In this document: piece by piece, positions 446-51,371 of the stretch | How the letters are laid out: each line of letters opens with the position of its first letter | Numbering within the stretch: the stretch's first letter is position 1 | DNA from: a virus | Taxonomy: Duplodnaviria > Caudoviricetes | IMG/VR virus record: IMGVR_UViG_3300028792_000007 | Coordinates: 1 to 51,371 of that record | Strand: one strand, 5' to 3' | Length of the DNA: 51,371 nt | The notes under the pieces: model-generated | Told to the model about the DNA's origin: nothing | What the model saw: the letters and a program-made list of their open reading frames with translations, nothing else | Databases searched by the model: none | Made by a program: the position numbers and the translations under genes

Positions 446-2013
446 GCCGCGCCAGTCGCCTCAACGGCCGGGTCGGGCAGAGTGACGTAGCGGCCACATT
501 TGCCCGGGTGGCTACGTCGTCCGCTGCTCCGCAGACCCTTGGCCCGACGCGGTTCTTCGGCCCCATCAACGATGGGGCGCTCACGGACCTCCAGCCCGCC
601 GGAGCGCCCCTGGTTCAGGCCCCACTGGCGGCCTCGCCGCTGGCGATCCCGACCTATGACGGGTCCGGCAAGATCGTGGAGCCGTGCGTCGTCTACTGCC
701 CCGAGGGGTGGAACGGGTATCAGTTCTGGATGGCCGCCATGCCCTACCCGGCAGCCAACGCCAACTATGAGAACCCGTGTCTCTACGTCTCGGTGGACGG
801 GCAGACGTGGACGGCTGCCCCTGGGGTGACGAACCCGCTGGTGCCGCAGCCGAGCAGTGGGGGGCTCCAGAACGCGGACAACTCGCTGTTCCTGGACCGC
901 GACGGGACGATGTACCTGTACTACATCACCCAGAACATCGCCACTCCGACCGGCTTCGTGTCGGTCATCTCGTCCAAGGACGGCGTGACCTGGACCGCTC
1001 CGCAGCAGATCATCGGCCCGAACGCGACCGCCGCGAACTACAACACCCCGTGCGTGGTGTGGGACGGGCAGCAGTACCGGCTCTACGTGGTGGATTGCAA
1101 CAGCACCTACACCGCGTTCAGGATCAAGTTCTTCACCGGTTCCACGCCGGTCGGTCCTTGGTCCGCGTCCCCGACGACCTGCGACGTCACCAGCGCCAAT
1201 CTCCCGGGCGGTGGTGGTCCTTCGCACCTCAACCTCCAGCGGTACGGCGGGAAGTTCTACGCGGTCGTCGCAGACAGCAACCTGAAACTGCACTTCGTCT
1301 CGTCATGGGACGGCATCGCCTGGAGCGTCCCGACGACCGCTCTCGCGGTCGGGGCCGGGTCTGGCTGGGACACCCTGCTCTACCGGGCCGCGTTCGCCAT
1401 CCAGAAGACCGGACGAGGGCACTCGCTCGCGCTCTGGTACGGCGGCAAGGACGCCAGCAACAACTACCAGATCGGCTACACCACAGCCGCCCTCAACACC
1501 GGGGGCTTCTGGTCCGGCCCCGGTGTGCAGCAGGTGGACTCGTCCTTCCAGGTCGTGGACAACAAGGCCAACAACCTGCTCCGTTCGGTTGCCGCGAACT
1601 CGTGGTCCGACAACGCCACCGCGCAGTTCCTCCAGGTCGGCAACGCCAGTGGACGCGCAGTATTCCAGGCATCGACCGGACAGCCCTGGTCACGACTCAT
1701 GCTGAACGCATCCCAGGTGACCATCGGCGGTGCCTCACATGGCACGCTCCCCGTCCCAGCCGCCTCATCGTTGATGGAGTGGGTCCAGGGGACGACGGTG
1801 GTGCAGGCGATCACCAGCACTGGTGGACACCGGCTCGGCAGTACCGCCGGTCTCGGTGCCGCGCACTACTCCGGCAGCGGCACGCCCACGATTGCCGGGG
1901 CGCTCGGGGACCTGTACTTCCGCAGCGACACGCCCGGCACGGCCAATCAGCGCATCTACGCCTGCACCACCGCAGGAGCAGCAGGGGCCGCAGTCTGGGC
2001 GGCGATCCTGTGA
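442..2013 (+). CDS. Glycoside-hydrolase-like beta-propeller protein, putative tail spike/receptor-binding protein
   Basis: ATG overlaps the upstream stop (ATGA). Motifs PTYDGSG..VEP, ENPCLYVSVDGQTW, SKDGVTW, SWDGIAW, YRAAF, LWYGG resemble five-bladed propeller glycosidases. C-terminal GSGTP...GDLYFRSD tail-fibre-type motif. Confidence 0.7.
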   Translation: MSRASRLNGRVGQSDVAATFARVATSSAAPQTLGPTRFFGPINDGALTDLQPAGAPLVQAPLAASPLAIPTYDGSGKIVEPCVVYCPEGWNGYQFWMAAMPYPAANANYENPCLYVSVDGQTWTAAPGVTNPLVPQPSSGGLQNADNSLFLDRDGTMYLYYITQNIATPTGFVSVISSKDGVTWTAPQQIIGPNATAANYNTPCVVWDGQQYRLYVVDCNSTYTAFRIKFFTGSTPVGPWSASPTTCDVTSANLPGGGGPSHLNLQRYGGKFYAVVADSNLKLHFVSSWDGIAWSVPTTALAVGAGSGWDTLLYRAAFAIQKTGRGHSLALWYGGKDASNNYQIGYTTAALNTGGFWSGPGVQQVDSSFQVVDNKANNLLRSVAANSWSDNATAQFLQVGNASGRAVFQASTGQPWSRLMLNASQVTIGGASHGTLPVPAASSLMEWVQGTTVVQAITSTGGHRLGSTAGLGAAHYSGSGTPTIAGALGDLYFRSDTPGTANQRIYACTTAGAAGAAVWAAIL

Positions 2014-2135
2014 GCGCCGAGGCGGTCCTGGCACTCCTGGGCGACCTCTACGCCCAGGTGCGGGCGCTCACCCAGGAGAACGAGTCCCTGAAGGGCAGGA
2101 TCGCTCAACTCGAACAGACGGGCGACGCTCTCTGA
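2010..2135 (+). CDS. Small coiled-coil protein
   Basis: GTGA coupling; 41 aa with heptad pattern LLGDLYAQVRALTQENESLKGRIAQLE. Confidence 0.6.
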   Translation: MSAEAVLALLGDLYAQVRALTQENESLKGRIAQLEQTGDAL

Positions 2136-2201
2136 CCTGCCCCACTTCGCCCGCATAGCCCGGACACAACCCGCACCACCAACCCCCCGAAGGAGCACCA
2201 G

Positions 2202-2510
2202 ATGATCCCCACCCCCGGCCGCATCGTCGAGTACACCCTGACCGAGCAGGACGTCGACCAGATCACCCGTCGTCGCCACGACGCCATGCACAGCGACATC
2301 GCGGAGCAGAAGTCCGGAGCGCAGGTCCACGTCGGTAACGCCGTCCAGGCGGGCGACACCTACCCCCTCGTCATCACCCGCACCTGGGGCTCCGCCGAGG
2401 GCTCCGCAGTCAACGGCCAGGTGCTGCTCGACGGCAACGACACGCTCTGGGTGACCTCGGTCAGCCAGGGTGACGGCGACCGCAAGTGGCGGCCGTACCC
2501 GCGCGTCTGA
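2202..2510 (+). CDS. Phage hypothetical protein
   Basis: AAGGAG RBS; PTPGRIVEY...VNGQVLLDGNDTLWVTS; followed by a terminator hairpin. Confidence 0.8.
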   Translation: MIPTPGRIVEYTLTEQDVDQITRRRHDAMHSDIAEQKSGAQVHVGNAVQAGDTYPLVITRTWGSAEGSAVNGQVLLDGNDTLWVTSVSQGDGDRKWRPYPRV

Positions 2511-2535
2511 CGCGCTGCAGCTGCTCGAGCGCGAC

Positions 2536-2574
2536 AGCGCCCCCGTCACCCTCACGCAGGGTGGCGGGGGCGCT
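2536..2574. terminator. Intrinsic terminator hairpin between convergent genes
   Basis: 17-bp stem AGCGCCCCCGTCACCCT / AGGGTGGCGGGGGCGCT (one G-U), followed by CTTCGT. Confidence 0.75.
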
Positions 2575-2600
2575 CTTCGTCATGCCCCGAGCCGACGTGG

Positions 2601-2807
2601 TCAGCGTGACCCGTCGCGCAGCTGGTAGACCCGGCCACGGGACACACCGAGCGTGTCCGCGACCACCCGCACCGGCACCCCAGCCAACAGGGCCGCACGC
2701 ACCGCGGCACTGCGCCGCTCCGCCGCCGCCGACACCAGCTCCTGCGCAGCCGTCACCGCCTGGTCCGCGGCCTCCACCTCGGCCAGCGCCTCCAGCATCC
2801 GCGTCAC
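2601..2807 (-). CDS. Small helix-turn-helix protein
   Basis: GTG at 2807 overlaps the TGA of the upstream gene; AAVRAALLAGVPVRVVADTLGVSRGRVYQL is HTH-like. Confidence 0.8.
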   Translation of the reverse strand: MTRMLEALAEVEAADQAVTAAQELVSAAAERRSAAVRAALLAGVPVRVVADTLGVSRGRVYQLRDGSR

Positions 2808-3292
2808 CGGGCACCGCCGGCCAGGACCGCACGCTCCCCGTCGGTCAGGTCCGCCGTGGCGTCCCCGGCCCACTCGCGCAGGTCCACGAGCAGCCGGTCG
2901 TACTCCAGGTCCAGGCCCATCTCCTCGGCGGCCTCGGCACCGAGGACGGCCGCGAACAGCGCCGCGACGACCGCGTGCGGGTCGTTGTAGTCGCCGAGCG
3001 CCGCCCAGACCCGCGACATCAGGGACCCGAGCTCGACGTCGGGGAGCAGGTCGGCCAGGTCGAGCACCTCGAGGTCGATGCCGGCCGCGCGGGCCGCGGC
3101 GATGCGGTGGGTGCCGGTGACCGCCTGGACACCCTGCACGAGGACGGGAGCACCGGTCCAGCCGTCGGCCTCCATCGCTGCGGCCAGGGCGGCGACCTTG
3201 GCCTCGTGGGGGTCCGGGTGGGTCGTGTACTCGTTGAGCGCCTCGACGGTCGTCGCGGCGACGGTGCTGGTGGGGAGCTCGGTCGAGGTCAT
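2804..3292 (-). CDS. ParB/Sulfiredoxin N-terminal-domain protein
   Basis: KVAALAAAMEADGWTGAPVLV...VTGTHRIAAARAAG resembles the ParBc GxHR motif. Confidence 0.7.
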   Translation of the reverse strand: MTSTELPTSTVAATTVEALNEYTTHPDPHEAKVAALAAAMEADGWTGAPVLVQGVQAVTGTHRIAAARAAGIDLEVLDLADLLPDVELGSLMSRVWAALGDYNDPHAVVAALFAAVLGAEAAEEMGLDLEYDRLLVDLREWAGDATADLTDGERAVLAGGAR

Positions 3293-35165: not shown

Positions 35166-35450
35166 GTGAGCAAGACCGTGCTGGTTCTCCCCGAGAACCA
35201 CCCGCGCAACCCCAAGCGCATCGAAACCTCCGACCCGACCGAGATCACCCAGCTGATCTCCGAGGGCTACAAGCCGCTCAGCGACGAGGACCTCGCCGCT
35301 GAGAAGGCCGCAGCCGACAAGGCCGCAGAGGACCTCGCCGCTGAGAAGGCCGCAGCCGACAAGGCGGCCGCCGAGAAGAACACCGGCAGCGAGCTCGGCA
35401 ACGCCGGCGAGAAGGCCGACAAGCCGGGCACCCGCGGTGGCGCCCGGTGA
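35166..35450 (+). CDS. Small tail-region protein with AAEKAAADK repeats
   Basis: AAGGAG RBS; TSDPTEITQLISEGY plus Ala/Lys/Glu repeats. Confidence 0.75.
   Translation: MSKTVLVLPENHPRNPKRIETSDPTEITQLISEGYKPLSDEDLAAEKAAADKAAEDLAAEKAAADKAAAEKNTGSELGNAGEKADKPGTRGGAR
35286..35365 (+). repeat. 42-bp tandem duplication
   Basis: GAGGACCTCGCCGCTGAGAAGGCCGCAGCCGACAAGGC at 35286 and 35328. Confidence 0.9.
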
Positions 35451-35731
35451 GCAAGACGTACCGCCTCGACGGCTACCGGGAGAAGGCGAAGCAGTCCGGC
35501 AAGGAGCCGTTCGTGCTCGAGGTCGGCGACGACGACAACATCGTCATCGCACGCCCCACCGGTCGTCAGATGATGGAGCTCGAGACCGCGACCTCCTCGC
35601 GGCAGGTCATGGAGGTCCTGTGCGGTGCCGAGGTGGCCGACCGGCTCATCGAGCTGGTCGGTAACGACGACGCCGACGTGCTCGCCTCCATCGGTGACGA
35701 CATCCGGGCCCACTTCGGTCTCGGCGCCTGA
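35447..35731 (+). CDS. Tail assembly chaperone (G)
   Basis: Position between major tail and tape measure; EPFVL...I..PTG..M...AHFG. Confidence 0.8.
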   Translation: MSKTYRLDGYREKAKQSGKEPFVLEVGDDDNIVIARPTGRQMMELETATSSRQVMEVLCGAEVADRLIELVGNDDADVLASIGDDIRAHFGLGA

Positions 35732-35746
35732 CCCCATCCGCGCGCA

Positions 35747-35779
35747 GTGGTGACCACCCCTGACCGGGGTGGTCACCAC
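35747..35779 (+). promoter_or_regulatory. Perfect 14-bp hairpin between G and G'-T genes (attenuator or stability element)
   Basis: GTGGTGACCACCCC-TGACC-GGGGTGGTCACCAC; no U tract. Confidence 0.65.
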
Positions 35780-35796
35780 ACCGCAGACCCCATTCC

Positions 35797-36504
35797 ATGC
35801 CCGGCTACCTGGACAGGCTCGCGAACGACGCCACCAGGGCGCCGTTCGGGCTGCACATCGACGACACGACCACGATCGTCCTCCCGGCACCACCGGTCGA
35901 GGACCTCCTGGCCTACCCGGCCACCCGGCCACTGTCCGCCCGGACCCGGCTCCTGTTGGGTGAGCGCACCGACCTGGTGCTCGCGACGATCGGCGACGAC
36001 GACCACCAGGTCCTCGAGCTGCTCCTGGCCGACGTGCTCGCCCACCACGGCGGCGACCTTCCCCGTCTCGTGTGGCTGCTCGACCGGTACGGCGACCACA
36101 TCGAGGCTGACCTCCGTGCCCGCGGCATCGACGTGCTCGACCTGTGGCGAGGTCGCCTGTCACCGCGGGCGCTGCTCAACCAGATCGACCACCTGCCCCG
36201 CGACTCCTCCTACCAGGACGCGCTCGCCCAGGACGACGAGGTCGCCGAACGGATCATCGCGATCCCCGGGGACGGGAAACCAGCGACGCCGCGGCTGACC
36301 GAGTTCTCCCCGGTCGTTGAGGTCCTCGCCGTGCTCGTCGACCGGATGGGGGAGCTCATCCGGCTCACCTCGCAGGCACACGGCGGGAAGCCCGGCCCGA
36401 TGAAGCCGCACCCGCGGCCCGTCACCGCCGCCGACCGGGCGCGGGCCCGGCGCGCCATCCAGGACCTCGCCAGCCTCGAGGACGCCCTGTTCCCCGACAC
36501 CTGA
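35797..36504 (+). CDS. Genetically fused tail assembly chaperone G'-T
   Basis: N-terminal ~85 aa paralogous to 35447-35731; C-terminal LLDRYGDHIEADL..GIDVLDLWRG...IDHLPRDS...ALAQD...PRP resembles actinophage T (pre-TMP) domains. Confidence 0.75.
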   Translation: MPGYLDRLANDATRAPFGLHIDDTTTIVLPAPPVEDLLAYPATRPLSARTRLLLGERTDLVLATIGDDDHQVLELLLADVLAHHGGDLPRLVWLLDRYGDHIEADLRARGIDVLDLWRGRLSPRALLNQIDHLPRDSSYQDALAQDDEVAERIIAIPGDGKPATPRLTEFSPVVEVLAVLVDRMGELIRLTSQAHGGKPGPMKPHPRPVTAADRARARRAIQDLASLEDALFPDT

Positions 36505-45980: not shown

Positions 45981-46670
45981 ATGGCTAAGGCATCCGACAA
46001 CCAGTTCCCGAAGGTGCTGCTGACGCCGGTCGACCCGGCGTCCATCACGCCGCCGACCGGCACCCAGGCGGTGCTGCTGGACTCGACCGACGGGAACAAG
46101 CTCAAGCGGAAGGCCGCCGGAGCCAGCGGTGCGGTCACCGCCATCGAGGGAGCCGGCGGCAGCGGAGGCGCGGCCGGGCGGGTGCTGCTCAAGGAGATCG
46201 TGCTCAGCTCGGCCGCGACCACGATCGACTTCACCAGCAGCGACATCCCCACCAGCGGCTACCGGCACCTCGAGCTGCGGTTCATGGGGCGCTCGGCCAA
46301 GGCCGCGGTCGACCAGGACATCTACCTGTACGCCAACGGCGACACCACCGCAGGCAACTACCTGGCGCAGAGAATCACCGCGACGAACGGCACGCTAGGC
46401 GCCCAGAGCCTGGCCGCCGGCTCCATCGGCTACATCCCGGGCGCGAGCGCCGCCGCGGGCTACGCCGGTCTCGTTCGCGTCGAGCTCCCGAACTTCCTCG
46501 ACACCGCCTTCTACCAGAACGCCTGGCACCAGTCCTGGACGCCCAACGAGCCCTACACCACCCACGGACCGTGGACGTGGAAGAACACCGCGGCGATCAG
46601 CGCGTTGAAGATCTCAGCCGACAACAACTTCGTGGCTGGCACGACCGCGCAGCTCTACGGCCTGGTCTGA
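45981..46670 (+). CDS. Tail fibre-related protein
   Basis: IDF..IPTSGYRHLELR, NGDT...NY, W.NTAAI, GTT.QLYG. Confidence 0.7.
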   Translation: MAKASDNQFPKVLLTPVDPASITPPTGTQAVLLDSTDGNKLKRKAAGASGAVTAIEGAGGSGGAAGRVLLKEIVLSSAATTIDFTSSDIPTSGYRHLELRFMGRSAKAAVDQDIYLYANGDTTAGNYLAQRITATNGTLGAQSLAAGSIGYIPGASAAAGYAGLVRVELPNFLDTAFYQNAWHQSWTPNEPYTTHGPWTWKNTAAISALKISADNNFVAGTTAQLYGLV

Positions 46671-47714
46671 ACCGGACGCGAGGCGCCGCCGGCCCCACTC
46701 GACGACCGGGGCCTCGAGGTACCGGTACGACAGCCACGCGAGACCGAGCGCCAGTTCCACGGCCACGATCCGACCCGTCCCGGTCAGCTCGGCACCGTGG
46801 AACTGGACCCGCAGCAGCACCTGGTGCCACAGGTACCAGCCGTAGGACACCTGCCCGAACCACCGGGCCACCGGGTGCGCGAACAGCGAACCAGCGGCAC
46901 CGTCGGCCAGCCAGATCACCCACGCTGCGGCCAGCGCAACCACGACCGATCCGTAGGTAATCACGGTGAGCATGCTGCCGCCGTACTCCCCGAACGGCAG
47001 GAACGACAACGCCAGCAGCACCGCGAGCCCAACAGCCGGTCGCACCCTCGGCCGGCCCAGCCGGCCCTCGTGCTGGAGAGCGGCGACCGCACAGCCGATC
47101 AGCAGAGCGAACGCCGTGGTGTCGGGCGCGTAGTAGACGCGCGCAAAGCCGAACAGGGTGGCAGCCAGCAACCGCCAGACGACCGACACCGCGGCAAGGC
47201 CGACGACGAGCTGGCTGAGCCGGAGCCGGCGCACCCCGAGCAGGGCTACCAGCATGATCGGCCAGGCCAGGTAGAACAACTCTTCCACCGACAGCGACCA
47301 GGTGTGGTCGAGCAGACCACCGACGTCACCACCCGCCGCGCACACGATGCTCGACAAGTACAGCAACACCACGGTCGCGTCCCGAGGGTAGCCCGCCAGC
47401 CGCGGGTCGCCGGTCATCGTGAGGAGTACTGGCACCGCGGCGAGCACGACTAGAAGCGCCGGCAGCAGCCGGACCGCGCGGCGCCAGTAGAACGCGGCGA
47501 ACCGGATCCGGCCGCCGCGGTCACGCTCGGCCAGCAGCACCCCGGTGATCAGGTAGCCGGAGAGCACGAAAAACAGGATCAGGCCCACGAGCCCGCCGTA
47601 CCGCAGCACGGCGTGGTCGAGGTGTCCGGCGACGACGAGCAGGATCGCGATCCCGCGAACCCCGTCCAGTGCCGGCCGACGACCGAGCCGCCAGACCTCC
47701 CCCGTTGATGCCAT
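46614..47714 (-). CDS. Acyltransferase-3 (OafA/OatA-like) membrane O-acyltransferase
   Basis: RPALDGVRGIAILLVV, FFVLSGYLIT, FYWRRAVRLLP, HTWSLSVEE.FY, G.VSYGWYLWH, SYRYLE.P; many TM helices. The true start is about 47714, not 48776. Confidence 0.92.
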   Translation of the reverse strand: MASTGEVWRLGRRPALDGVRGIAILLVVAGHLDHAVLRYGGLVGLILFFVLSGYLITGVLLAERDRGGRIRFAAFYWRRAVRLLPALLVVLAAVPVLLTMTGDPRLAGYPRDATVVLLYLSSIVCAAGGDVGGLLDHTWSLSVEELFYLAWPIMLVALLGVRRLRLSQLVVGLAAVSVVWRLLAATLFGFARVYYAPDTTAFALLIGCAVAALQHEGRLGRPRVRPAVGLAVLLALSFLPFGEYGGSMLTVITYGSVVVALAAAWVIWLADGAAGSLFAHPVARWFGQVSYGWYLWHQVLLRVQFHGAELTGTGRIVAVELALGLAWLSYRYLEAPVVEWGRRRLASGSDQAVELRGRASHEVVVG

Positions 47715-47799
47715 CCACCGAGTGTGCAACACCCCCCGCGGCCGCCGCCAGGCGTTCGTCCACTGCCCCACCCACCCGCACCCGTGAGGGGGACACCAC

Positions 47800-48192
47800 A
47801 TGACCGATGAGCCAGGCGGTTGGGAACTCAAGCGAGCGCTGAGCGATCTCCGCACCGACGTGCGCGACGGCAACAAGGCAATCCGTGACGAGATCGCGAA
47901 GCTCGTCACCAGCGACGCCCACGCCTCCGACGTGCTGCGTCTGGAGGACCGGATCAAGGGCCTCGCCGACGACCTCGCCGCCGAGCGGCAGGCACGGGTC
48001 GAGGCGGTCGCGCTCGAGCGGGAGACCCGCACCATCGAGCACAACCACGAGGTCACCGCCCGCAAGGAGTCCCAGGCGTCCATCCAGGCGCAGATGGACC
48101 GGACCGCGACATGGGTCCGCTGGGTCGCCGCCTCGGTGATCATCCCGATCGTCCTGTTCATCGCAACCATCCTCACCTCTCGGGGAGCATGA
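47800..48192 (+). CDS. Coiled-coil protein with C-terminal TM (lysis cassette)
   Basis: GAGGGGG RBS; EP..WEL.R, coiled coil, [18 protein letters not shown]. Confidence 0.75.
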
Positions 48193-48815
48193 CCATGCGC
48201 ACCATCAAGTGGGCGGCCGTCGTCGTCGCGTTCGTGCTGATCGGGCTCGTGCTCGCGATGCTCGCGAACCAGCAGGCAACCAGCGACGCCCGGATCTCCG
48301 ACCTCACCCACCGCAACGTCACCCTCGAGGTGGCAGCGAACCGCGACGCGGCCGCAGCGACCGCGCTCGCACGCCAGGTCCGCCGCCTCGGCGGCCGCCC
48401 GGTCGTACAGCCCACGGCAGTCCCGACACCCGTCGCGGGGCCGCAGGGCTCGACCGGCAACACCGGACCTCGAGGACCCGCCGGCGCCCAGGGGATCCCG
48501 GGTCCCCGGGGCGCGACCGGTGCCCGCGGCCAGACGGGCCCGGACGGCCAGCCTGGTGTTCCCGGCCCCGCCGGCGACCGCGGCAGCAGCGGGGAGACCG
48601 GACCCCAAGGCCCGACCGGACCGCCTGGACCGCCTGGGCCGGCCGGGGAGCAGGGCCCGAAGGGCGACCCGGGAGACGCCGGTGCGCAGGGCCCGCGCGG
48701 TGAGCAGGGCCCCGCCGGCCCGGCCTGTCCGGACGGCTACCAGCCCGAGCCCCGCACGGTGCACACCGACGAGCACCCCGCCGGCGAGACCGTCCTGGTC
48801 TGCGTCCAGTCCTGA
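48189..48815 (+). CDS. Membrane-anchored collagen-like protein
   Basis: N-terminal [15 protein letters not shown], 32 uninterrupted Gly-X-Y triplets (48438-48725), CPDGY...VC. Confidence 0.85.
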
Positions 48816-48883
48816 TCACCCGCCCCGACCTCGCCCGCGCCATCACCCGGCTCGCGGGCTATCCCGACCTGCCAGGAGGAACC

Positions 48884-49612
48884 ATGTCGAAGTACGCGGC
48901 GCCCACACCGCCCATGATCGCGGCCCGCTGGAAGGGTGGCCCACAGGTCCCGAAGGTTGTCGTCATGCACTGCACCGTCTCGTCGTGCATCCCAGGGGCC
49001 GCGCGAGCCATCGCACGCTTCTTCGCCACCGAGAACAACAAGACCAGCGCGCACTATGTTCGTGACCCTCACGAGACGATCCAGAGCGTCCCGGATCACG
49101 TCGTCGCCTACCACTGCGGCCACAACCAGGACAGCATCGGGTACGAGCTCTGCGACCTGCAGGCCGGACCTGACTCGCGGTGGAGCGACAAGAACCACGA
49201 GGACATGCTGCTCGGCGCCGCCAAGGACGTGGCCCAGCTCTGCCTCGCCTACGGAATCCCGATCGTGCGGCTATCCGTTGCTGACCTCAAGGCAGGCAAG
49301 GGCGGCATCTGCGGCCACGTGGACGAGTCCAACGCCTTCCACGGCTCCACCCACACCGACCCCGGACCCGGGTTCCCGTGGGCCCATTTCATGGGCCTCG
49401 TCCGGGCTGCGGCGAACGCGCTGCAGGCGCCGACCTCGGGCGTCTCCCAACGCGACGTCGTGCCACCCGTCAAGGCCACCCACGCACCCAACATCGACGC
49501 CGCGGACGCCTCGCTCGCCAAGGCCGGCAAGGTCTCCCAGGGCGCCAAGGCCAAGGCCATCGCCGCCGCGCGGAAGTTGCTCGCGCCGTTCCGGAGCACG
49601 GGAAAAGCCTGA
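48884..49612 (+). CDS. Endolysin, N-acetylmuramoyl-L-alanine amidase (Amidase_2)
   Basis: AGGAGG RBS; VVMHCT, SAHY, AYHCG, SIGYEL, ICGH, HTDPG..FPW. Confidence 0.92.
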   Translation: MSKYAAPTPPMIAARWKGGPQVPKVVVMHCTVSSCIPGAARAIARFFATENNKTSAHYVRDPHETIQSVPDHVVAYHCGHNQDSIGYELCDLQAGPDSRWSDKNHEDMLLGAAKDVAQLCLAYGIPIVRLSVADLKAGKGGICGHVDESNAFHGSTHTDPGPGFPWAHFMGLVRAAANALQAPTSGVSQRDVVPPVKATHAPNIDAADASLAKAGKVSQGAKAKAIAAARKLLAPFRSTGKA

Positions 49613-49628
49613 GCGGCCTGCGGGTCGC
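49600..49628 (+). promoter_or_regulatory. Candidate -1 programmed frameshift signal (G GGA AAA plus 3' stem-loop)
   Basis: Heptamer 49600-49606 is in phase with the endolysin. GCGGCC-TGCG-GGTCGC stem starts 6 nt downstream. The -1 frame encodes the EEP domain. Confidence 0.6.
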
Positions 49629-50214
49629 GACCTTCAACGTCGACCAGTTCCGTGCCGTCGACCACCAGTGGGCCGACCTGGCCGGCGTCCTCGAGCACGC
49701 CGACGTCGTCCTCCTCCAGGAGACGGTGCACCTCGACCTGGTCGCCCGGGTCCGCACGGTGCCCGGGTGGGCGGCGTGGCAGCAGCGGGCCGGCACCAAT
49801 GACGGCCACGCCAACACCGCGGTGCTGCTGCGCAGCAGCCTCGGTTTGAGGGACGCCGGCCAGCGGTTCCTCGTCGACTCGGCCGACACCCGCCGCCGGT
49901 ACGTCACCTGGGCGACGCTGGCCAGCGGCCTCACCGTCGCCGCCGCCCACCTGCCCCCCGCCCGCGACAAGGCCGACCTCCCTGCCGCGCTGGCCAACCT
50001 GCGCCGGTTCGCCCGAGCCCACCGCCGCGGTGGCCTCGTCATCGGCCTGGACTCCAACACCGACCAGCACGGCCCCCTCGAGCACGCCACCGGCCTCACC
50101 TGGGCCGGCACCGGCATCGACGGGTTCCTCACCAACCTCGGCCAGCACGGCCTCCACCAGCTCGACCGCCGCTACTCCGACCACCACCCGCTCGTCACCA
50201 CCCTCACCTCCTGA
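49609..50214 (+). CDS. Endonuclease/exonuclease/phosphatase (EEP) domain with no canonical start codon
   Basis: LRVATFNV, ADVVLLQE, AHL, IGLDSN, ID, SDHHPL. The first downstream in-frame GTG (49726) lies after the conserved N and E. Confidence 0.8.
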   Translation: MSGLRVATFNVDQFRAVDHQWADLAGVLEHADVVLLQETVHLDLVARVRTVPGWAAWQQRAGTNDGHANTAVLLRSSLGLRDAGQRFLVDSADTRRRYVTWATLASGLTVAAAHLPPARDKADLPAALANLRRFARAHRRGGLVIGLDSNTDQHGPLEHATGLTWAGTGIDGFLTNLGQHGLHQLDRRYSDHHPLVTTLTS

Positions 50215-50228
50215 AGGAGCACGCCAGC

Positions 50229-50585
50229 ATGAAGATCTTCGGCCGCGAACCCATCGCCATCATCGCCGGCCTCCAGGCCCTGCTCGCCCTGTTCTGCTCG
50301 CTCGGCTGGCTCGCCACCCTCGGCATCAACACCCAGGGCGACGTCGCCATCGTCGTGCTCGTCCTCAACGCCGCGGCCGCCGTCGTCGTCGCCATCACCA
50401 CCCGCGCGACCCTCCTCGCCCCCGTCGTCGAGCTCGCCAAGGCCGTCCTGTCCCTGGCCGCGATCTACAACCTGCACCTGAGCAACGAGCAGACCGGCTT
50501 CCTCCTCGGCGCCATCCCGCTGCTGCTCGCCCTGCTCCACCGCAGCCAGACCACCCCGGTCGCCACCGCGATCTCCAACGCCTGA
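50229..50585 (+). CDS. Holin
   Basis: AAGGAG RBS; MKIFGREP, several hydrophobic helices, R.QTTPV; in the lysis cassette. Confidence 0.8.
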   Translation: MKIFGREPIAIIAGLQALLALFCSLGWLATLGINTQGDVAIVVLVLNAAAAVVVAITTRATLLAPVVELAKAVLSLAAIYNLHLSNEQTGFLLGAIPLLLALLHRSQTTPVATAISNA

Positions 50586-50630
50586 CCCTCCCTGCCACGC
50601 CCAGAGCTGTACGACGACAGGAGCCACACC

Positions 50631-51326
50631 ATGGCGACCACCAACCGCAACGAGTTCGGCGGCGGCCTCTCCGACCAGGCGGTGAGCATCAACGGCCGAG
50701 ACATCCTCCTGCCGCCCGCCGGCGCCCTCGCGACCTGCTGGTCCGGGCCCCCCGAGGACCTCGACCGGGTGCAGTACGACGACCTGCGCGCCATCGACGA
50801 CGCCGCCACGGTGATCAGCCAGATCCGGTTCACCGCCGCCGGCACCCTGCCGCGCTTCAAGGGGCCACCCAACGACGCCGTCACCCGGCTGTGGGTGTCC
50901 GCCGACGGCGGCACCACCGGCCTGTGGCTCGGCATGACCGACCTCCACCCGGTGGCCGCGACGGGCTCCTACATCGACCTCGGCGACAAGCCGACGATCC
51001 CCACCACGCCGGGGCAGGTCGCCGCCGATCCGGCCGGTGCCGCAGCTGCAGCGCAGGCCGCGGCAATCGCAGCCGCGTCGACGGACGCCACCAGCAAGGC
51101 CAACGCCGCCCAGGCGGGGGCTCAGGCTGCCTCGACCCCGGTCGCGCACGCCACGAACACGGCCAACCCGCACGCGGTCACCAAGGCCCAGGTCGGCCTC
51201 GCCCTGGCCGACAACACCTCCGACGCCGGCAAGCCCGTCAGCACCGCCCAGGCGACCGCCGACGCCAACGTCCTCGCGACCGCCACCGGCCGCTCCATCG
51301 TCAACGCACTGATCTACGGAGGCTGA
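50631..51326 (+). CDS. Tail fibre-like protein
   Basis: AGGAG RBS; NPHAVTKAQVGL..ADNTSD..KPVSTAQ fibre repeat motif; VAATGSY.DL.DKPTIP. Confidence 0.75.
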   Translation: MATTNRNEFGGGLSDQAVSINGRDILLPPAGALATCWSGPPEDLDRVQYDDLRAIDDAATVISQIRFTAAGTLPRFKGPPNDAVTRLWVSADGGTTGLWLGMTDLHPVAATGSYIDLGDKPTIPTTPGQVAADPAGAAAAAQAAAIAAASTDATSKANAAQAGAQAASTPVAHATNTANPHAVTKAQVGLALADNTSDAGKPVSTAQATADANVLATATGRSIVNALIYGG

Positions 51327-51371
51327 CCCCATGGCTACACCGAACCTCTCGGCCATCACCACCGTCACCCC
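51249..51371 (+). repeat. Terminal overlap, right copy
   Basis: Matches 1-123 with one mismatch. Confidence 0.95.

Follow-up and report, generated by a model that had tools for sequence, protein, structure and literature searches.

A likely programmed −1 frameshift that would extend a phage amidase endolysin with an EEP phosphoesterase domain

In the DNA of a temperate phage, an amidase endolysin gene ends on a slippery heptamer, and a frame encoding an EEP phosphoesterase domain continues beyond its stop codon. We propose that a programmed −1 frameshift at this heptamer leads to two lysins, a 242-aa amidase and a 443-aa amidase-EEP fusion, and we consider this reading likely. An earlier, sequence-only reading had suggested the same pair of products with a fusion of about 443 aa, and the predicted fusion does come to 241 + 202 = 443 aa. 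Its frameshifted amidase-EEP proposal has gained support, as the heptamer recurs at three distant amidase stops and in-frame fusions of the two domains are common.

The window, by which we mean the whole stretch of DNA that was analyzed, is the source phage record of 51,371 bases (70.6% G+C, CheckV 64% complete). The phage is temperate: it encodes an integrase, as well as a tail module. Its capsid protein shows 57-59% identity to those of Arthrobacter phages, and by inference its host is an actinobacterium.

The endolysin gene and its slippery end

The lysis region lies on the plus strand and has the order collagen-repeat membrane protein, amidase, EEP frame (to 50214), and holin. The two genes upstream of the amidase (47800..48815), which we mention for context only, encode a coiled-coil protein with a hydrophobic C-terminal stretch and the membrane-anchored collagen-repeat protein. 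The amidase frame runs from ATG 48884 to TGA 49612 (242 aa in zero frame) and has a Shine-Dalgarno sequence, AGGAGG (48874..48879), 4 nt 5' of its ATG. Residues 22-162 form an Amidase_2 domain (PF01510, E 5.9e-14; 53 bits against a cut-off of 26), and an Ala/Lys-rich C-terminal tail follows. The holin of the same cassette (50229..50585; phrog_9752, E 6.4e-17) lies directly 3' of the EEP frame. An Rfam search of 47000-51371 gave no match. Between the tail genes and the lysis genes, the minus strand carries an O-acetyltransferase moron (46614-47720; phrog_6705, E 4e-47).

The amidase ends ACG GGA AAA GCC TGA, and G GGA AAA (49600..49606) is thus an X XXY YYZ heptamer in the correct phase and the predicted site of the −1 shift. 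The sequence-only reading had pointed to this heptamer and had called its codons uncommon, and both statements hold: over 72 heuristically called ORFs of the window, AAA makes up 14 of 302 Lys codons (4.6%) and GGA 94 of 1153 Gly codons (8.2%). The 6-nt spacer GCC TGA (49607..49612) contains the zero-frame stop and is overlapped by a CTG in the −1 frame (49609-49611). We propose that tRNA-Gly and tRNA-Lys would slip back in tandem, from G GGA AAA to GGG AAA, and that they would be helped by the neighboring stop codon and by a hairpin at +6. The 443-aa form would be the minor product beside the 242-aa amidase. We also considered transcriptional slippage and set it aside, since the run of A's, at four, is short for it.

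A structure that stimulates −1 frameshifting from the 3' side is expected 5-9 nt downstream. The window has a 6-bp hairpin (49613..49628) that starts 6 nt after the heptamer and is a possible stimulator. The stem-loop claimed earlier is therefore there, and the stem alone reaches −10.3 kcal/mol (on a stretch trimmed to fit the hairpin), but in contexts of 54-111 nt the folding is no better than that of shuffled sequences (z −0.06 to +0.49). The z-scores of hairpin-fitted stretches were not counted as support. Hairpins at +6 are present in the window and in two of the related loci described below (L014 and L062), and significance in context is reached in L062 only (z −2.25); the shuffle test in context gave no significant hairpin for the window, L014, or L064. 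As for a stimulator on the 5' side, we considered the GGAG at 49593 and rejected it, as it is probably too close, judged by the spacing in dnaX.

The efficiency of the site may be modest. In passages of a review of frameshifting (PMC5009743), A_AAA_AAG is said to be a far better shift site in E. coli than A_AAA_AAA is; G_GGA_AAG and C_CCA_AAG are named as highly shift-prone, and the forms ending in AAA are not. Because it is the heptamers ending in AAG, rather than AAA, that these passages rate so highly, the shift rate in the window may be low.

The −1 frame is open from 49285 to 50214, and its EEP part (49600..50214) begins at the heptamer. Translation from 49600 gives 204 aa, with 202 new residues after Gly-Lys. 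The GC3 of this frame is 0.57 before the heptamer and 0.97 after it. The observation that the domain has no start codon near its beginning also stands: the first ATG, GTG, or TTG is GTG 49726 (residue 43), which is behind the motif residues N13 and E41.

The main rival to the frameshift is a start at the near-cognate CTG 49609. The EEP would then be a separate gene, coupled to the amidase stop by the CTGA overlap, and the A-rich run would aid initiation rather than slippage, with free EEP made at a low level. We consider this unlikely. The position of the CTG suits it, as it is 7 codons before TFNV, which is the offset of the Met in P0004, P0009, P0010, and P0011. A weak SD-like word, GGAG (49593..49596), also lies 12 nt 5' of the CTG, but this distance is outside the 4-10 nt found for the window genes that have an SD of GGAG or better. 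Related loci, discussed below, also bear on this rival, in both directions.

Another explanation is that the amidase and the EEP form one fused gene from which a single base has been lost, through an assembly error or a recent mutation. In-frame amidase-EEP fusions are indeed common, yet we find the deletion very unlikely for several reasons. First, JGI/IMG, Logan, and ENA each list an identical 242-aa protein, and on contigs of 51,371 b and 51,221 b the EEP is a separate call (although these records may share reads). Second, the protein P0088 stops at the same place as the window's amidase, in -PKA, with Pro for Gly, which would fit C CCA AAA. Third, a heptamer of this kind marks the break in three other phages as well.

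Slippery amidase ends in other phages

To set against the window's amidase end, we have 122 amidase loci (42 viral amidase loci from a first scan and the best 80 of 121 from a second). Two of these are cut off, and with duplicates merged there are 51 ends of a Cutibacterium type and 51 distinct ends that are not of this type. Three of the latter 51 have an in-phase XXXAAAA heptamer no more than 2 codons from the stop. The expectation for the 46 GC-rich ends is 0.009, given the rate within gene bodies (2 heptamers in 30,336 codons), so that the Poisson P is 1e-7, or 4e-6 with an upper rate. Several matches known as protein only were left out of these counts: P0088, proteins of the P0102 type (with a -QGK end), and the start-truncated P0008, P0016, and P0018.

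In each of the three loci (L014, L062, and L064), an enzyme domain follows the heptamer in the −1 frame. Their amidases share 39-64% identity with the window's, and the four amidases occupy three places in a quick tree, with L062 and L064 as sisters. The first triplet of the heptamer differs among them (GGG or CCC) while the triplet pattern stays. The sequence SSSAAAAGCCTRR is present in 2 of 50 phage records, each time at an amidase stop. Thus, related loci show both the heptamer with its −1 geometry and natural in-frame fusions, either of which the sequence-only reading had named as a sign that the arrangement is conserved.

Could the heptamer be a chance product of purine-rich gene ends, with a silent EEP frame behind it? 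It is true that coupling leaves many homologues with Gly-Lys or Lys as their last residues. However, among 394 ORFs called heuristically from 59 GC-rich loci plus the window, 4 have such a heptamer end and all 4 are amidases (those of the window, L014, L062, and L064), so no non-amidase ORF has one. The EEP frame of the window is also intact, with a GC3 of 0.97 after the heptamer. We judge chance to be highly improbable here. Chance heptamers do occur at the Cutibacterium-type ends (13 of 51, at 55% G+C), and as the −1 frame stays open for just 8 and 10 codons in the two that we inspected, heptamers alone prove nothing in A-richer genomes. Another locus, L130, has an in-phase G GGA AAG seven codons before its amidase stop, and its −1 frame continues into a gene that is ATG-coupled and whose N-terminus is hydrophobic; this heptamer is probably due to chance. 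Two further matches that resemble SSSAAAA followed by a stop (G001 and G038) were discarded, as they are not in-phase gene ends.

The amidase of L014 is the closest with DNA among the matches listed (64% identity) and ends CAG GGA AAA TAG. Its −1 frame encodes a proline-rich linker of ~25 residues and then an EEP that is different from the window's. This EEP had no match in Pfam, but it is detected by our own HMM (E 0.0013), by BLASTP to P0159 (E 4e-5), and by an Atlas structure model (TM 0.70-0.75), and the motifs are present. L014 has no CTG, and the first ATG of this EEP is two residues before the first catalytic Asn. A start at CTG leaves L014 unexplained, as there is no CTG and the proline linker is in the −1 frame.

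The other two loci both read C CCA AAA GCC TGA, and GCC TGA after the heptamer is thereby common to them and the window. In L062, the −1 frame encodes a GH19 glycosidase (E 1.3e-5) that is cut by the contig end; in L064, it encodes an SLT_3 transglycosylase (E 9.6e-14). The amidase of L064 ends in a proline linker and an ATG is retained directly after its stop. In favor of starts at CTG, residue 1 of the GH19 chain 9ms7 maps to the CTG of L062, but neither L062 nor L064 has an SD before the CTG. Also, starts at CTG do not explain why L064 has a heptamer beside a good ATG, or why the XXX triplet is retained in rare codons (GGA or CCA, plus AAA). More generally, GTGA or ATGA coupling is common after related amidases, as in L016, where the amidase is followed by a GTGA overlap and a GDPD-like gene, and separate EEP or GDPD genes lie beside some amidases (L019, L033, and L042); these too are what a coupled second gene would look like. 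Overall, a coupled CTG start fits the window and L062 but not L014.

The frameshift, which we prefer, can also be related to such coupled genes. The CTGs of the window and L062, the ATG of L064, and the coupling in L016 suggest that the cassette may have originated from a coupled gene pair with a GTGA or ATGA overlap, in which gene 2 was already in the −1 frame. The pair would then have gained a slippery site, and the start of gene 2 would have decayed (in the window, to CTG).

We also noticed a group of amidases (P0102, P0115, P0117, P0119, P0085, and P0088) whose C-terminal region is like that of the amidase of L014 or of the window. They end in Gly-Lys, Gly-Lys-Ser, or Pro-Lys-Ala and are candidates for carrying the cassette. 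Separately, the lysin frame of L014 (2224-3798) has a weak SLT-like domain (E 0.005) upstream of the amidase and in frame with it, and a GGAGG with a GTG at 2974 lies before the amidase. A single gene could thus combine an internal start with a −1 frameshift.

The EEP domain, its partners, and its substrate

The assignment of the −1 frame to the EEP phosphoesterases, which was made from motifs at first, is supported by a match to PF03372 (E 4.8e-5), along with a match to the EEP fold and the motifs themselves. The score of 23.7 bits is just below the cut-off of 24.5, and the close homologues P0005, P0006, P0009, and P0015 pass it. In the Atlas structure model, which covers residues 43-204, TM is about 0.8 to clusters of PF03372. 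All of the motif residues are present (N13, E41, H117, D151, N153, D174, D194, and H195, corresponding to N, E, H, DxN, D, and DH), and we take their metal-binding and catalytic roles to be those of the motifs in DNase I and exonuclease III. The window's EEP had no PHROG match and no match in GenBank phages, and the window's proteins had no match to the GDPD domain PF03009.

The conservation of these residues suggests that the domain is functional. The 12 fusion proteins of the same subfamily all carry the 8 motif residues unchanged, and in the fusion proteins of other EEP subfamilies, E41, D151, and H195 are each kept in 23 of 23. Because the motif residues are kept across the fusion proteins, the EEP of the window is probably catalytically active, as a metal-dependent phosphoesterase, rather than a binding module.

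The EEP query led to in-frame EEP-amidase fusions (P0003-P0006) with 45-50% identity to the window's EEP, and there are more EEP fusions, to amidases and to another type of endolysin (P0015, P0022, P0058, and P0020, the last with endolysin phrog_9589). In P0009, P0031, P0059, and P0066, the second domains resemble wall hydrolases by eye, and no library names them so. From the amidase side, 88 proteins were hit, with an EEP-like domain at the C-terminus in 8 and at the N-terminus in 3 (Pfam backs 6 of these 11 domains at E 0.021 or better). The fusions among relatives therefore occur in both domain orders. Four other amidase hits have a GDPD-like domain instead (P0118, by PF03009 with E 1.7e-4, which is under the cut-off, and P0121, P0140, and P0143, by BLASTP to P0118). 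Among the 42 viral amidase loci, 8 contained an in-frame EEP by our own EEP HMM; one locus had the EEP as a separate gene, and one had it in the −1 frame. (These counts are from the HMM that was not built from the scored loci; a second HMM was circular and its E-values were dropped.) GDPD-like genes adjoin the amidase in 6 loci, two of which are duplicates (L016, L033, L038, L041, and L042 are such loci, with L033 and L042 above the Pfam cut-off).

From these sequence comparisons, it appears that the amidase and EEP domains belong together. Furthermore, as the partner domain is not always an EEP, the heptamer signal would be a general device for extending lysins.

Searches for DNA of the window's own EEP subfamily found little. 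Viral, genome, metagenome, and GenBank phage sequences gave no locus with this subfamily downstream of an amidase. Viral contigs yielded no DNA of the subfamily (a pattern scan gave 9 loci, none related), nor did genome contigs (one unrelated EEP, from Nannocystaceae) or GenBank phages, and L014, L062, and L064 all lack it. A single query with the window's amidase had no match in viral contigs. A metagenome scan returned 2 EEP loci, both in-frame: an EEP-amidase lysin (L002) and a tail-region protein (L001). The latter (1067-3169) is of the window's EEP subfamily and lies upstream of baseplate-like genes; the subfamily is also found in P0012 and P0014. This hints at a virion-associated use of the EEP in those proteins.

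If the frameshift is real, we give about an even chance to the idea that the EEP cuts a phosphodiester-linked wall polymer of the teichoic-acid type. This proposal is by analogy. First, GDPD-like enzymes and glycosidases fill the same slot. Second, GDPD/GlpQ enzymes release wall teichoic acid, according to parts of two reports (PMC10194240, PMC9208761), and one EEP subfamily cuts sugar phosphodiesters, according to part of a third (PMC10704324).

Again supposing that the frameshift is real, the substrate could instead be DNA (extracellular or from the host) or membrane phospholipid, and we put the chance of this somewhat short of even. Nucleases and sphingomyelinases are among the EEP members mentioned in that third report (PMC10704324). 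Besides PF03372, the only named families that match the window's EEP are exonuclease III models, all far below their cut-offs (such as TIGR00633, E 2e-5), and there is a weak match to structure 6lpm (E 0.74). On the other hand, the slot is also taken by GDPD-like, GH19, and transglycosylase domains, and the EEP occurs in fusions with different types of wall hydrolase (amidases and, in P0020, an endolysin of phrog_9589). Because the slot and the fusion partners are those of wall hydrolases, the EEP points to the wall.

Comparison with known systems and implications

Frameshifting of the kind seen in the tail chaperones G and GT of lambda and other long-tailed phages is already known. As in that system, the first frame has an X XXY YYZ heptamer at its 3' end, from which a short product and a C-terminally extended one would result; the lambda products are made at a set ratio of 30:1, as given in part of a review (PMC5009743). 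The differences are that the gene here is an endolysin, that its extension would be an enzyme (an EEP, a GH19, or a transglycosylase), and that AAAA closes each heptamer. The tail chaperones of the window itself (35447-36504) appear to be two separate genes without such a heptamer junction: a G-like gene of 94 aa, and one of 235 aa that matches the whole G-T profile phrog_2624 (positions 25-260 of 270). A perfect 14-bp hairpin (35747-35779) lies between them, and there is no SD before the second ATG. Short-plus-fused chaperone pairs are mentioned for T4-like phages in the discussion of the PRFect paper (PMC10885494).

Endolysins made as two polypeptides have been described (Ms6 LysA, 2638A, and CTP1L; PMC9430671, in part), and they resemble our proposal in that one gene gives two isoforms with differing domain content. 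However, in the portions of that source that describe them, the short form is C-terminal and is made from an internal in-frame start, whereas in the window the short form is N-terminal and the long form needs a change of frame. Internal starts are the means given for two-product lysins in two papers (PMC9430671, PMC6116005), and the word "frameshift" is absent from their main texts. In the split lysin A of the actinophages Octobien14 and Perlina, lysin domains also lie in adjacent or overlapping ORFs, but these are annotated as separate genes without a join, unlike the proposed fusion. For the split lysin of Lactobacillus phage Sabazios, slippage was considered and no slippery site was found, as stated in part of its description (PMC7260188).

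The EEP itself is linked to the superfamily PF03372 (which includes GlcNAc-PDase, sphingomyelinase, and exonuclease III) by the fold of the Atlas model and by its motifs, but it belongs to a compact subfamily (about 195 aa) that is tied to phage lysins. A functional likeness is offered by the GDPD/GlpQ hydrolases, in which a phosphodiesterase is paired with a peptidoglycan hydrolase (a tail-associated GDPD, PMC10194240; WhyD/GlpQ, PMC9208761). The EEP has another fold and the phage GDPDs described in these reports are tail-associated, so that this likeness is one of analogy.

We found no frameshift-extended endolysin and no EEP-bearing lysin in the open-access literature (by titles and abstract openings, where term matching may limit the result), which agrees with the earlier reading, to which no frameshifted endolysin-EEP system was known. 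Possibly the nearest precedent is the phage lysin of Shearman et al. (1994), a paper whose title refers to two overlapping genes and which reportedly describes an internal second gene. That paper is the source given in the PRFect survey (PMC10885494) for placing lysins with the genes "known to contain a frameshift." In the same survey, 2,476 of the 3,679 actinophage genomes have an annotated frameshift, 2,397 of these being in tail chaperones and 79 in hypotheticals. What appears to be new is the −1 recoding of an endolysin with an exchangeable second enzyme, and the EEP lysin module is apparently unstudied.

Taken together, a broader reading is that actinobacterial phages share a portable −1 cassette (XXX AAAA, often with GCC TGA) that bolts an interchangeable enzyme onto a minority of amidases, and that the EEP is an undescribed lysis enzyme that strips teichoic-acid-type polymers and would be a counterpart of LysB for mycolate-free hosts. 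We hold this joint reading only tentatively, with more doubt than confidence.

If the frameshift is real, then endolysins would join the short list of phage genes that are recoded by −1 frameshifting, and phages would have a further way, other than internal starts, of making two lysin isoforms in a set ratio. The predicted long product is missed by gene callers: the EEP of the window is on record only as a 162-aa piece, without two of the catalytic residues (N13 and E41). Lysin-fused EEPs and GDPD-like phosphodiesterases suggest an unstudied activity in lysis that acts on phosphate-linked wall polymers, and the EEP module could matter for the engineering of lysins against Gram-positive walls.
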